A DNA stretch of 52,229 nucleotides, filler included, from Candidatus Woesearchaeota archaeon (GTDB taxonomy: Archaea; Nanobdellota; Nanobdellia; Woesearchaeales; WJIZ01): assembly GCA_018221205.1 (NCBI GenBank). It is 4 parts of 4 records of this genome, joined end to end, with 100 filler letters (N's around TTAATTAATTAA, not from the genome) between each part and the next. Parts side by side here need not be neighbours in the genome. Positions count along the whole stretch, not along the records: positions 22,158 to 52,229 come from JAAOYF010000024.1; 3 more parts are not named here. One strand, written 5' to 3'. Positions 27,262 to 31,819 of this stretch are shown here, piece after piece. The position numbers and the translations under genes were made by a program. Each line of letters starts with the position of its first letter. Positions within the stretch are counted from its first letter, which is position 1. The notes beneath the pieces are model-generated. The model worked only from the letters and a program-made list of their open reading frames with translations. It did no database searches and was not told the DNA's origin.

Positions 27262-27300
27262 GGAAACTTTTAAAAAAGGGGTTTAATCTCAGAGCTATAT

Positions 27301-27402
27301 GGCCCAGTAGCCTAGCCTGGATAGGGCGACAGGAAAATCATAAGATTTTCTCGCCAGAGCCTTCTAAGCTGTAGGTCGGGGGTTCGAATCCCTCCTGGGC
27401 CA
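27301..27402 (+). tRNA. tRNA-Arg(UCU) with a 27-nt intron at position 28/29
   Basis: Acceptor GGCCCAG/CTGGGCC, D-arm GCCT/GGGC, spliced anticodon arm ACAGC-CTTCTAA-GCTGT, T-arm GGGGG-TTCGAAT-CCCTC; TATA-like TTTTAAAA upstream; CCA not encoded. Confidence 0.92.
27331..27357 (+). other. tRNA intron with bulge-helix-bulge motif
   Basis: Central helix GGCG/CGCC, bulges ACA and AGA, hairpin GGAAAATC-ATAA-GATTTTCT. Confidence 0.85.
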
Positions 27403-28147
27403 CTTCTTTGTAAAAGTTCCAAGGATTAAGGTTTCCTTCAAGGATATCTATTCTCTCTTGATAAGTTGTTTTAGGTGGGACGAAGCCAAATTTTTTATAA
27501 ATGAGATACCTGGTTAAGTGATTTGGATTAGAGAACTCTATGACTTCCTTCCAATTCTCTAGTCTAGATTTTCCGCTTACTTGAATCATATAGCTATCGG
27601 CCTCATTTCGGATATTCTTCTTCTGTCTTGCTATGAAATGTCGGATATTTAAGTTGCGTATCATTTGTGAGAGTTGGAGAATGAATTCCTTGCATACTGA
27701 TTTTATTTGAATTCTTGGATACGTATGAATAATCTTCAGGATTTTTCTGTCATTTGCGTATCTCTTATCAAAATTAAGGCAACCATCACCTGCACAGAAA
27801 CCCCTAATAAATGCTGCATGTACTTTTTTGTTTTTGGACTTTTGAATTACAAAGGGAATCCTTAGCGAATATGTTTTTTTGCCATAAGGAAATCCTAGTT
27901 CATGATGAAAAAAGCTGATTATTGATTTATTGCACACATAGAACCCGTAGACAGAATTACTTGGTTTTTCGTGAGGCCTAATCTTAATTTTAAACTCTGA
28001 TGAGAATATATTCGTAAGAATTGAATCGTAGTACTTACGATCAGCAGTGGGATTTCCCCAGAAACAAATGTGGTTTTCCTGCATAGAACCATCTGCTGCA
28101 AAAATTCCTGCCAGTTCGGAGATTTTTTCATTAATTTCTGATTTCAT
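27338..28147 (-). CDS. Free-standing two-motif LAGLIDADG homing endonuclease
   Basis: ELAGIFAADGS and AFIRGFCAGDGC motifs; basic protein in an AT-rich gene; no intein splicing residues. Confidence 0.88.
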   Translation of the reverse strand: MKSEINEKISELAGIFAADGSMQENHICFWGNPTADRKYYDSILTNIFSSEFKIKIRPHEKPSNSVYGFYVCNKSIISFFHHELGFPYGKKTYSLRIPFVIQKSKNKKVHAAFIRGFCAGDGCLNFDKRYANDRKILKIIHTYPRIQIKSVCKEFILQLSQMIRNLNIRHFIARQKKNIRNEADSYMIQVSGKSRLENWKEVIEFSNPNHLTRYLIYKKFGFVPPKTTYQERIDILEGNLNPWNFYKEVAQEGFEPPTYSLEGSGEKIL

Positions 28148-28341
28148 ATCAAATCACATCAATTCTTGTGGTGAAACTTCCTAATTGATTTTTAGTGAAG
28201 CGAAAATCATAATTTAAAGTTGAACTTAGCTTAAGTGATTTTTATGAAATTAAATTATATAAATCTCACGTACATACCTTTTTTGTCCAGTGTATAATCT
28301 TATTCAGAATTAATAGATTTACTTACGGATTCCGGAAGATT

Positions 28342-28361
28342 TTCGAATCCCATCAGGGCCA
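28342..28361 (+). repeat. Degenerate direct repeat of the tRNA 3' end
   Basis: TTCGAATCCCATCAGGGCCA vs TTCGAATCCCTCCTGGGCCA (27383-27402), 17/20 identical. Confidence 0.7.
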
Positions 28362-28363
28362 TT

Positions 28364-29719
28364 TTATGCTGCAATGACTATTGCCCTTTCTTTTGGGAGA
28401 TAAATATGATAGCCGTTCTCGATCGGGTCTTTTCCTCTTCTCATCAATCTGATCTGTGATCTGAAGAATTGGCTTTCTCGTTCATATTGCCCTGGAAATG
28501 CATAAGGAATGATTCTGAGTGTTTCCCTGTCATCTGAAATCGCCAACCCAGGTAGTTCTTGGTGTATTGATTCATACACTCTATATGGCTGTGCTGCGTT
28601 AACCCAATCAGCGTTTCTTTCAGCTACCTGTTCCCAGGTGACGAAATTTTCTCTCGTCCGAGGAGTGTTCTTTCTATAGAATCCTTGTCCAAGTATGCCC
28701 ACTTGGAATATTGCTTTCAACTTAATATTAGCAGCTTGAACTAGCCGAGCAGCCTCCAATTTTTGATCATATGAAATATTCTTTCCGAGGAGCCTTGAAC
28801 CTTCATCGTGAGCAGTCTCCACACCCAGATACAGCCTATTCAATCCTGTTTCCCATAATCTAGAGAGATTCTCTCTTGTGTATCCTCGACCAGTTCTTGA
28901 ATACGCTAGTGCTGATTCTGAACTGACGAAAGAGCCAATTTTTTCGAGCCAAGGAAAGTACTCTCGCATAAGTTCGACTGCTTTTGCTGCAGTCAAATCT
29001 GTTCGTTTGTCTTGATCTAGTCTTAGTACATCTGATATATTAATGAATCCTTCATTCATTCTTCTCATCTTGTCTCCAAGAATGTTGCCCATGGCTTCTT
29101 CAGTCCTTTCCAGCTCGGCAATAAATTGATCTATGGTGTACGGTTTGAACGGTACTGTCGATTCGGGGCAAAATGTGCATGCTTTTCCACACCCGTCACC
29201 TGCTTTAACAAAAATCGTCCTGTGAGTCTGATCTGGAATGATGTCTGTTGAGGATTGCAGAGATTTAAGCAAAAGAAATCTTGCAACAATTGCTTCATAT
29301 GTTAAGACTGAAAAATCTTTTCCAATGCCTTTCAGCTCTCCTTCAGAAACGGTCTTCGCTTCATCATAAGCAAAACCTACTAGCTGTTCCAGTAACTGTT
29401 CTGGTGTTGCATTTGCCTGATCAGCAACACACCCTAAGGGAAGGGACTTCCTCTTTAAGGTATATGTATGTTGAGGATCTTGACTTACAACAGTTTCGAT
29501 AGAATCTGGATTTACCCTATACATACCAGTCATATCTCCAGTTACGGCAAACGTTATTGCTAGATCATTAGTAGTTAGGACAAATTCTGGTTCTTCTTCT
29601 TCTCCGAGATTCTCAGCGCTAAAATAAAGATTTCTTCCATTGTTAAAGCCTATTTTACTCAGTGTTGAAGGAAAGCGTCCACTGAGCTGAATGGCTTTTT
29701 TTATGGTTAGGTCAGACAT
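28364..29719 (-). CDS. Radical SAM protein with N-terminal extension
   Basis: CGKACTFC (CxxxCxxC); GLNRLYLGVET. Confidence 0.85.
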   Translation of the reverse strand: MSDLTIKKAIQLSGRFPSTLSKIGFNNGRNLYFSAENLGEEEEPEFVLTTNDLAITFAVTGDMTGMYRVNPDSIETVVSQDPQHTYTLKRKSLPLGCVADQANATPEQLLEQLVGFAYDEAKTVSEGELKGIGKDFSVLTYEAIVARFLLLKSLQSSTDIIPDQTHRTIFVKAGDGCGKACTFCPESTVPFKPYTIDQFIAELERTEEAMGNILGDKMRRMNEGFINISDVLRLDQDKRTDLTAAKAVELMREYFPWLEKIGSFVSSESALAYSRTGRGYTRENLSRLWETGLNRLYLGVETAHDEGSRLLGKNISYDQKLEAARLVQAANIKLKAIFQVGILGQGFYRKNTPRTRENFVTWEQVAERNADWVNAAQPYRVYESIHQELPGLAISDDRETLRIIPYAFPGQYERESQFFRSQIRLMRRGKDPIENGYHIYLPKERAIVIAA

Positions 29720-29778
29720 TCCTGACCTTCTTACATGTCGCTTTATAAATCCTATTGGTTAGAATATTCTTATCAGAA

Positions 29779-30675
29779 TTATTCATGGGGTGTGACGATT
29801 CTTTCCTCTACTGCTGATATAAGTGATTTAAGGTCGGGTGGCTCATAGCCGCAGCAGCCTGAGACGAACAAGTCTCTCTCTAAGAGTTCAGGGTGTCTTT
29901 CAAACAAAGCTATCAGCCAGGTAACATACGCATCGACACCTCCGTTCTTTATGACTTCTGTGGCTTGATCCAACACAGCGTAGTCCTCGTCGCTTGCGTT
30001 GTTGTAGAGAATACGGAAATTCGTGAGCAAGCCTCTTTCTGCTGCCCGATCCAGCATGATGCCTACTGAATCATTTGTGCTGCAATTCGTTCCCCATCCC
30101 TGAAGAGTATGACCAGGGACAGAATATATTTCTTCGACGAGTTTTTCTATTGGCTCATCTCGATCGTAGAGCATTCCATTTCTTTCCAGCTTTGCACTGA
30201 GATATATTGGCATTCTGTATTCTGCTGCCAATTGCACTAAGCCAACAGCTTCAGGGACGTTCTCAATCGTTTCTGCGAGCAGTGCATCAACCCCTTCATC
30301 GTGAAATGCTTTGACCTTGGATCTATGATATATTTTAGCTTGCTCTGGAGTCACTATCCATGTTCCTTTAATGGCTGCATCTTTTGCTCCGCCGGTGGTG
30401 CCCCAGAGAACAACATCATCTCTTCCGCTGCGTCGGATTCCCTCTCTGGCAATCCTTACGGACTGGACTGTGCCTTTGTCTGAATCTGCTCCCAGATGCC
30501 TGCGGCAGCACCCATAGGAATCGGTGATGAGAACGCCAGTCTGGAGAGAGAGAAAATAGTCAATCATTTCGGCAACTATCGCTCTGCCAGGCTCTGTTAA
30601 CAGCGCTTGCCTATCGTCTAGGCCGTGCCTCATTTCTCGTGTTGGTCTATAGGCTGAGCTTGTATAGATAAGCAT
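29779..30675 (-). CDS. Homocysteine S-methyltransferase family protein (divergent)
   Basis: GVDALLAETI, GTNC and GCCG zinc-ligand motifs. Confidence 0.8.
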   Translation of the reverse strand: MLIYTSSAYRPTREMRHGLDDRQALLTEPGRAIVAEMIDYFLSLQTGVLITDSYGCCRRHLGADSDKGTVQSVRIAREGIRRSGRDDVVLWGTTGGAKDAAIKGTWIVTPEQAKIYHRSKVKAFHDEGVDALLAETIENVPEAVGLVQLAAEYRMPIYLSAKLERNGMLYDRDEPIEKLVEEIYSVPGHTLQGWGTNCSTNDSVGIMLDRAAERGLLTNFRILYNNASDEDYAVLDQATEVIKNGGVDAYVTWLIALFERHPELLERDLFVSGCCGYEPPDLKSLISAVEERIVTPHE

Positions 30676-30736: not shown

Positions 30737-31819
30737 TCAGGGCAGCCAGGTCTTCTGGTCCTTGAGCTTTTCTGGCAGGTATTTCTCGATGACGTAATTA
30801 AGTCCCCATTTTGCTAAAGCTTGCTGTTCTGCTCTCACTTTCATCTGTGCCATCTGCTTAAAGGCCTTCTGCCATGGCTTATGGTGCTTGATGAATGGAT
30901 CGTTCTTGATCGCGTCTTTTATTCTTTTGATGTCGACATCTTTCAATGGATGAGAAGGAAGCTTGTAATCGATAATGTCTTGTGGAGTTATGCCGATGAA
31001 TTTTGCGCTGGGAACGCAGAAATACTTGTTTATGTGTGCTGCATTTCCTGAGCCTACCTTTAATGTCCTGTAGATATTAGCAAATCCATAAGGATCGCCA
31101 TCTGTGAAGACAAAGACTGGTAATTTCTTATCATCGCTCAATCTTCTGATGAATCTTCGGCATGCTCTTGTGGGAACTCCTCCCAGACTGATGAGGATGC
31201 AATTCGCTTTTTTCCAGTAATTATGCTTCACCAATCGCTGAAACATACCTGCTGTCTCTATGGCGAGGATGAACTTTGCTGTTGTCTGGAATTTAAGTTC
31301 CTCGACCTGGCTTGGAATAGAATAAGCACCAGAGCCGAATTTTGTGCAATCTATTTTGACTTCTTTCCCTGTATCCGGATCTTTGTCTATGACAATCAGT
31401 TTTCCTGCAATATCGCCGCCTTTCTCTTCTGGAATAAAGCCAATCTGCTCTCTGTTGACCATCATCATGGCTTCGACATCATCCATGACTGTATCGGATT
31501 CTGGCTGGGAGACAAAACGTGCCTCTTCCCAATTTTTGGAGACGTAATAGGCTTCTCTCTTTGTGGCGATGTCTTCGCTCTCCACTAATTCTTTAGAAAG
31601 TGCCATCATCCTCAAGGTCTGGGCAAAGGTCTTTACACTAGAAGCAGTCAATGTCCTTTCCTTCTTCTTATCGATGATCTCAAAATAACCGTCTTTCGAA
31701 TCATACTTCACATTAGACAACGAACGAAGAGGCATATGCAACGTAGGCTGCTTCTTCTTCAGGATGTCCTTATAGACATCTTCAGCTGTTTCCTTGATCT
31801 TCTTTATCACTGGTTTCAT
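30737..31819 (-). CDS. top6A: DNA topoisomerase VI subunit A
   Basis: TKREAYY, QPESD, FTDGDPYG, EQQAL. Confidence 0.95.
   Translation of the reverse strand: MKPVIKKIKETAEDVYKDILKKKQPTLHMPLRSLSNVKYDSKDGYFEIIDKKKERTLTASSVKTFAQTLRMMALSKELVESEDIATKREAYYVSKNWEEARFVSQPESDTVMDDVEAMMMVNREQIGFIPEEKGGDIAGKLIVIDKDPDTGKEVKIDCTKFGSGAYSIPSQVEELKFQTTAKFILAIETAGMFQRLVKHNYWKKANCILISLGGVPTRACRRFIRRLSDDKKLPVFVFTDGDPYGFANIYRTLKVGSGNAAHINKYFCVPSAKFIGITPQDIIDYKLPSHPLKDVDIKRIKDAIKNDPFIKHHKPWQKAFKQMAQMKVRAEQQALAKWGLNYVIEKYLPEKLKDQKTWLP

Follow-up and report, generated by a model that had tools for sequence, protein, structure and literature searches.

How does a putative homing endonuclease gene come to end inside the intron of a tRNA gene, and can such a gene help the intron to spread? 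The question is raised by a locus of Candidatus Woesearchaeota archaeon (assembly GCA_018221205.1), lying in a window (the whole stretch of DNA analysed, 52,229 nucleotides, along which all positions are counted) that holds a LAGLIDADG gene facing tRNA-Arg(UCU). In the accessible text of a 2026 preprint on Asgard archaea (10.64898/2026.10.13.758758) the arrival and spread of archaeal tRNA introns are treated as open, with no general route given, and the words 'homing' and 'LAGLIDADG' are absent from its main text as available. A full-text literature search, in which subscription journals were thinly covered and supplements lay outside, found no description of LAGLIDADG genes at the ends of DPANN tRNA genes.

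The tRNA-Arg(UCU) gene occupies positions 27301-27402 on the forward strand (Rfam RF00005, 48.1 bits, E = 6.8e-9). ARAGORN called it as tRNA-Arg(tct) with a 27-nt intron when run with -i and missed it without intron mode. Sequence, Rfam and ARAGORN place the 5' exon (tRNA positions 1-28) at 27301-27330; the intron follows at 27331-27357, and sequence and Rfam place the 3' exon (positions 29-73) at 27358-27402. A TATA-like box on the same strand (27268-27275) is the putative tRNA promoter, and comparable T/A boxes occur 5' of related tRNAs.

A flanking AG repeat leaves the position of the intron ambiguous in this sequence alone. It was placed at 28/29 from the geometry of the bulge and from three genomes of the same family, in which only this placement restores the stem. 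The intron folds into a GGCG/CGCC helix, a 3-nt bulge and a 7-bp hairpin, which is a relaxed bulge-helix-bulge; such relaxed forms are known (PMC3239211, accessible part). As the genome also encodes its own tRNA splicing endonuclease (PF01974 match), the relaxed junction fold and the host enzyme together mark a probable archaeal bulge-helix-bulge tRNA intron.

On the opposite strand, positions 27338-28147 encode a predicted free-standing endonuclease of 269 amino acids with two LAGLIDADG motifs (Pfam LAGLIDADG_3, PF14528; E = 6.4e-9, above cut-off). Each motif helix ends in an acidic residue, as is usual in the superfamily. D121 is invariant and D19 at least 90% conserved in an alignment of 70 sequences; both are putative catalytic residues, to judge by what is known of the family. 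The predicted structure (pLDDT 94, with a low-confidence tail over the last 20 residues) has its best Foldseek match in the archaeal intron endonuclease I-Tsp061I (2dch, E = 3.6e-12). With two LAGLIDADG helices and an alpha-beta fold, the protein is, by Pfam, the model and Foldseek, a member of the LAGLIDADG endonuclease superfamily. The gene is under purifying selection, dN/dS being 0.05 to 0.20 in 12 of 14 homolog pairs (two pairs were saturated) and 0.12 to 0.15 in pairs beside intron-less tRNAs.

The putative promoter of the endonuclease gene (28255-28292, reverse strand) consists of a CACTGGACA box (28284-28292) followed by a TATA-like box (28255-28263). Across the genome the same pair precedes five LAGLIDADG ORFs and occurs in five other places. 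The CACTRGACA box has 19 sites in the genome (28284-28292 among them), against six for the reversed control, and ten are followed by a TATA-like box; some of these pairs precede host genes, one of which is, by eye, a ParA-like ORF. CACTRGACA may belong to host regulation and serve the cassettes as well. A leader motif at 28203-28225 (reverse strand), seen by eye and unscored, is common to several other LAGLIDADG genes of this genome and its relatives. A scan for sigma-70 promoters and terminators, whose model does not cover archaeal promoters, gave chance levels. No RNA run was listed among the sequencing runs that contain the locus; the single run listed was probably of DNA, may be the source sample and yielded fragmentary contigs.

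As first described, the end of the ORF is antisense to the tRNA 3' exon and intron. The overlap is 65 nt: the last 21 codons run antisense through exon 2 into the intron, with the TGA inside the intron hairpin. This stop codon region, on the opposite strand, is the only part of the ORF that overlaps the intron, and the endonuclease lies outside intron and intein, again as first described. The conserved protein core ends near residue 246, and residues 249-269 are non-conserved read-through into the tRNA.

The preliminary description took antisense read-through into the intron for the key feature of the element, and had set homologs that stop before the tRNA against that idea. Homologous loci were collected by protein similarity alone (113 in total: 33 from genomes and the best 80 of 107 from metagenomes). 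Eight were dropped, two with an antisense tRNA start at the contig end and six truncated or weak. All 105 evaluable loci, some of them duplicated across collections, touch tRNA-Arg(UCU): in 99 the tRNA was parsed directly downstream, in one more it was seen by eye (L084), and in five it lies upstream and divergent. Distinct downstream tRNAs in this sample number 86, the present locus included, of which 53 are co-directional with the gene and 33 convergent. Among the 33 convergent genes, 14 end without entering the tRNA, which is the outcome that had been set against the idea; 11 run 19 nt into it and eight go deeper. By eye, only two (the present locus and L097) stop within an intron. Because stop positions vary among convergent loci, the read-through tail is best explained by a lost stop codon. 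The conserved feature is adjacency to tRNA-Arg(UCU), not overlap, and the read-through loses its central place. The present gene itself belongs to a 14-row clade (support 97) in which 12 rows are co-directional, as are most close relatives; the C-terminal peptides of four close homologs suggest a convergent arrangement. On an 89-row quick tree (all trees here are quick trees) orientation changes 14 times, at least eight of the changes being forced by strong branches.

Partner identity was followed further with weaker matches from the 401-genome sample of the order (39 endonuclease regions, plus L009; tRNA labels by eye). A sister clade adjoins tRNA-Arg(UCG) in 11 of 11 cases (SH-aLRT 99) and another adjoins tRNA-Leu(CAA) in nine of ten rows (SH-aLRT 100). 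Six rows adjoin tRNA-Leu(UAA), and a separate clade of four again adjoins tRNA-Arg(UCU). The tRNA labels require eight changes on the tree, the minimum possible, against a mean of 28 for shuffled labels.

Seven of the nine distinct LAGLIDADG_3 genes of the present genome lie at tRNA ends (by eye). Besides the present gene, six LAGLIDADG genes abut intron-bearing tRNAs (C34, C39, C46, C63 and C74, the last with two genes, C38 being probably the front of one); in C34 and C39 a copy of the tRNA end lies at the far edge of the LAGLIDADG gene. Another LAGLIDADG gene (C40:185-1051) stands directly before a protein-coding gene, which we take to be that for S-adenosylmethionine synthetase, and a short copy of the latter's first codons lies upstream. 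This is the layout of the tRNA remnants described below, here on a protein-coding gene. Loci of the Leu(CAA) clade (L184, L186 and L202, also L180) have an intron-bearing tRNA-Leu first, then the endonuclease and then another copy of the 3' exon. In three of them the stop codon ends 3 nt short of position 38, the site of the would-be 3' splice bulge; this placing may point to an ancestor encoded within a 37/38 tRNA intron. At L208 (genome G521) an intron-less tRNA-Arg(UCG) lies beside the endonuclease and is followed by two further T-loop-like copies.

Close members of the family (E < 1e-75) are found in eight of 401 genomes of the order, the present one included, and in none of five relatives from its own family. 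A second-order sample of 201 genomes, built around a Pacearchaeota record, has them in four. The titles of the records with close homologs name Woesearchaeota and other DPANN groups, which points to a Woesearchaeota-like host. As is typical of a free-standing homing endonuclease, the gene is optional and relatives carry empty alleles: in four same-family genomes the syntenic tRNA lies next to top6A, facing the same way, and there is no endonuclease match in 10-11 kb. In one of the relatives (G004) 23 nt separate the tRNA end from that of the top6A match. In the window top6A, which is presumably the gene for topoisomerase VI subunit A to judge by its sequence, lies at 30737-31819 on the reverse strand (ORF and synteny) and serves as the synteny marker. 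Endonuclease identity is correlated with top6A identity (rho 0.61; 151 pairs, 18 loci), which indicates that much of the inheritance is vertical or within lineages. The compact, integrase-less LAGLIDADG cassette of roughly 1 kb tied to tRNA-Arg(UCU) that was originally proposed is supported by its adjacency to this tRNA at every evaluable locus and by its patchy occurrence.

Between top6A and the cassette lie genes for a radical SAM protein and a homocysteine S-methyltransferase (28364-30675). The radical SAM gene (28364-29719, reverse strand; PF04055) flanks the cassette and is outside it, and was not found in six family genomes. Nor was any empty allele found that links the tRNA directly to this gene. 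Since both genes are unmatched in the syntenic regions of the family, they may be a separate recent gain here.

At the far edge of the cassette, positions 28342-28361 (forward strand) repeat the tRNA 3' end (positions 54-73) in direct orientation, 959 nt away. The match is 17/20, as first reported; it is the best in the assembly besides the tRNA itself and the only one of at least 17/20 outside the tRNA in the 1.28-Mb genome. The repeat supports the proposal that the original tRNA end was displaced, and would be the remnant of an older tRNA allele. It agrees with the tRNA of family member G004 at 18 of 20 positions, against 17 for its own tRNA, and each difference is a common natural state; the three mismatches could be drift. 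A hairpin role for the remnant region was considered and is unsupported (z 0.10).

A profile scan for the expected tRNA end at the far cassette edge found 3'-end remnants in five of 29 convergent loci, 167-198 nt from the start codon, and 5'-end remnants in five of 49 co-directional loci. In controls, 5' ends were found in one of 105 windows, and 3' ends were noisy (12 of 111, which by eye are mainly adjacent tRNAs or T-loop introns). The last position of the 5' remnants falls at 10-22 and the first of the 3' remnants at 38-54, so the part that is missing is the tRNA middle. In eight of the ten remnants the sequence departs from that of the resident acceptor stem, in some at several positions, and at these loci the resident 5' half could not pair with an incoming 3' half. 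The cassette is likely to bring a whole tRNA and not, as the preliminary description had it, a replacement 3' half.

We regard it as probable that the locus is a free-standing, tRNA-isotype-specific homing cassette with optional intron protection, its homing activity being predicted. The endonuclease would recognize and cut the tRNA-Arg(UCU) gene of cells that lack the cassette. The double-strand break would fall mid-gene, near the anticodon arm, in the part that both kinds of remnant lack. Host recombination would copy the gene in together with the donor's whole tRNA, which would provide homology on one side, and an occasional illegitimate join on the other side would leave the old tRNA end as a remnant. 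Imprecise founding events of this kind might account for the differing sides as well as the remnants. Selection for tight linkage may then bring the ORF end and the tRNA to a distance of about 0-9 nt, and the stop codon may be lost in the process. An intron in the anticodon arm would probably give optional self-protection, and through it introns would hitch-hike with the cassette. How intron-less carriers might avoid self-cutting is a guess; low expression or repression could serve.

A small AbrB/MazE-like ORF lies directly 5' of the endonuclease in a second clade of the family (L032, L037, L040, L042, L043, L049, L051, L082, L083, L085 and others). It precedes the gene in 19 of 78 loci, and that of L051 matches Pfam PF04014. 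The tRNA is intron-less at nine of the 19 loci with this ORF and at 12 of the 59 without it (p = 0.035, confounded by clade). The ORF is a possible repressor. Members of the second clade (L037, L038, L042, L043, L044, L049, L050, L081, L082 and L111) are also often beside a metallo-beta-lactamase-fold gene, several with a tRNase Z match, and L026 adjoins a tRNA splicing endonuclease gene.

A vertically inherited and frequently lost DNA- or RNA-binding protein, domesticated as a WhiA-like tRNA regulator or an intron-splicing maturase, would also show strict partner fidelity, purifying selection and an enrichment of introns beside its gene. The partial agreement with host marker distances and a promoter box common to host genes point the same way. 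However, the gene is present in only about 2% of genomes and has kept both acidic catalytic positions, its side and orientation have changed repeatedly, broken tRNA remnants lie beside it and it occurs next to intron-less tRNAs. The genome also has its own tRNA splicing endonuclease gene. Domestication is rather unlikely on this evidence.

Of the link between intron and endonuclease drawn in the preliminary description, part stands. In the order sample, introns are present in 10 of 11 gene-linked tRNA-Arg(UCU) genes against 79 of 184 others (Fisher p = 0.003; kin are not independent). The latter fraction is 43%, or about 50% after correction for introns missed by the pattern, which detected 43 of 62. 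Introns 5' of the anticodon, counted by eye, are found in seven of 11 gene-linked tRNAs; of 140 listed rows for comparison, 17 have one. For the second clade the intron-bearing share is 27 of 43 tree rows, and for the second order it is 18 of 133 (kin are again not independent); after near-copies are collapsed the clade count is 19 of 35, the order membership of metagenome contigs being presumed. The background tallies include four unpublished genomes (G268, G270, G388 and G189). An unbiased sample of the second order has introns in only two of four gene-linked tRNAs. Of 21 other 28/29 introns, the one most similar to the present intron accompanies an endonuclease homolog of 62% identity; its similarity score is 27, against 9-12 for introns of the present genome's own family. 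This likeness suggests that intron and endonuclease may have been transferred together in one case.

Co-occurrence is thus enriched and not obligatory, with intron similarity following the endonuclease in one case. No intron is present in 24 of the 86 distinct gene-linked tRNAs (from the 33 genome and best 80 of 107 metagenome loci), to which two more can be added by eye (L048 and L084). Three of four syntenic same-family alleles have the 28/29 intron without an endonuclease gene, so the co-occurrence across relatives that the preliminary description asked about is not strict. Unusual anticodon stems, considered as an explanation for the intron-less neighbours, are seen by eye at L027 and L029, but the second clade has common stems. 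Intron protection appears to be at most optional.

Had homing been obligately collaborative, the cassette would carry an intron-protected 3' half, the intron would be needed for immunity and the intronic stop would couple the two. Intron enrichment in both orders, the resemblance of the present intron to one beside a close homolog and the stop within the intron all fit such a scheme. As a general rule it is largely refuted, since many linked tRNAs have no intron, intronic stops are confined to two convergent genes, three family members have the intron without the gene and eight of the ten remnants imply carriage of the whole tRNA. This scheme is quite improbable for the family.

A tRNA with a direct repeat of its end is the classic footprint of integration (PMC3293823, accessible part), and the cassette could be what remains of an integrase-driven virus or plasmid element, shrunk to a passenger endonuclease and an att-like repeat. 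Elements of that class have an integrase within or beside the repeats. Here, in line with the preliminary description, PF00589 has no match in the assembly (94.8% complete), and no integrase or transposase is found among 68 flanking ORFs (68 of 124 listed) at 34 loci. Viral contigs, with 69 pattern matches, include no relative of the endonuclease. Remnants of both 5' and 3' ends occur, as do three arrangements of gene and tRNA; at convergent loci the remnants lie 167-198 nt away from the start codon, and the choice of tRNA partner goes with the endonuclease tree. A decayed integrative element is unlikely, and very much so.

Least likely of all is a target next to the tRNA or at its ends, destroyed by insertion as in the intronless homing of T4 SegB, with intron enrichment as a lineage side effect: this would explain intact genes beside intron-less tRNAs and the near-constant distance of the ORF end from the acceptor stem, and PMC2988022 (accessible part) lists a tRNA intergenic region as the target of SegB, but flanking genes vary widely, clades discriminate anticodon types such as UCU and UCG, and the remnants lack the tRNA middle.

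If the tRNA-isotype-specific homing cassette is the correct reading, a selfish element that spreads by cutting a tRNA gene may help tRNA introns to spread. Free-standing homing would be extended from phages to archaeal chromosomes, and the clades would be natural meganucleases with predictable targets, for example the UCU and UCG sister clades. A tRNA-isotype-specific endonuclease would also make the question of intron spread cheaply testable, with one protein and intron-plus and intron-minus alleles. A wider proposal is put forward tentatively, with rather more doubt than confidence. LAGLIDADG cassettes devoid of an integrase would have radiated in small DPANN archaea, each clade with its own tRNA isotype; they would invade by cutting the anticodon arm and supply a whole tRNA. 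Arm introns would block the cut, so the enzymes would select and ferry non-canonical tRNA introns; one tRNA-Leu clade may itself derive from an endonuclease once encoded within a 37/38 intron.

Among known enzymes, I-Tsp061I (2dch), I-DmoI, PI-PfuI and the TliVMA intein share with the present protein the two-motif monomeric fold and acidic residues at both motifs (Foldseek and profile matches). Unlike them, it is encoded outside intron and intein, has a tRNA gene as its partner and carries about 40 extra conserved C-terminal residues. In collaborative or trans homing a free-standing endonuclease is paired with an endonuclease-less group I intron, as is reportedly the case for F-CphI. The present cassette resembles such systems, as far as the accessible part of PMC2988022 describes them, in that the endonuclease lies outside the intron and introns are enriched in its presumed target. 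It differs in that the introns are not group I ribozymes but protein-spliced tRNA introns of 11-90 nt at several positions, in an optional partnership.

T4 SegB and intronless homing, in the accessible account of PMC2988022, offer the parallel of a free-standing endonuclease gene beside a conserved target, in both cases a tRNA, with no integrase; mobility here would likewise rest on break repair and co-conversion. SegB is a phage-borne GIY-YIG enzyme whose listed target is a tRNA intergenic region, whereas the present enzyme is of the LAGLIDADG type, chromosomal and archaeal, and its gene lies against or partly within a tRNA of one isotype per clade, with remnants of tRNA ends left behind. With SSV1/pNOB8-type elements, as presented in the accessible part of PMC3293823, the cassette shares an intact tRNA and a direct repeat of its end, and the model of intron gain for tRNA-integrating elements set out there has in common with the present one a proposed tie to intron gain. 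In contrast to those elements, the cassette has no integrase that could be found, measures about 1 kb and may lie at either tRNA end, and its remnant usually comes from a different allele.
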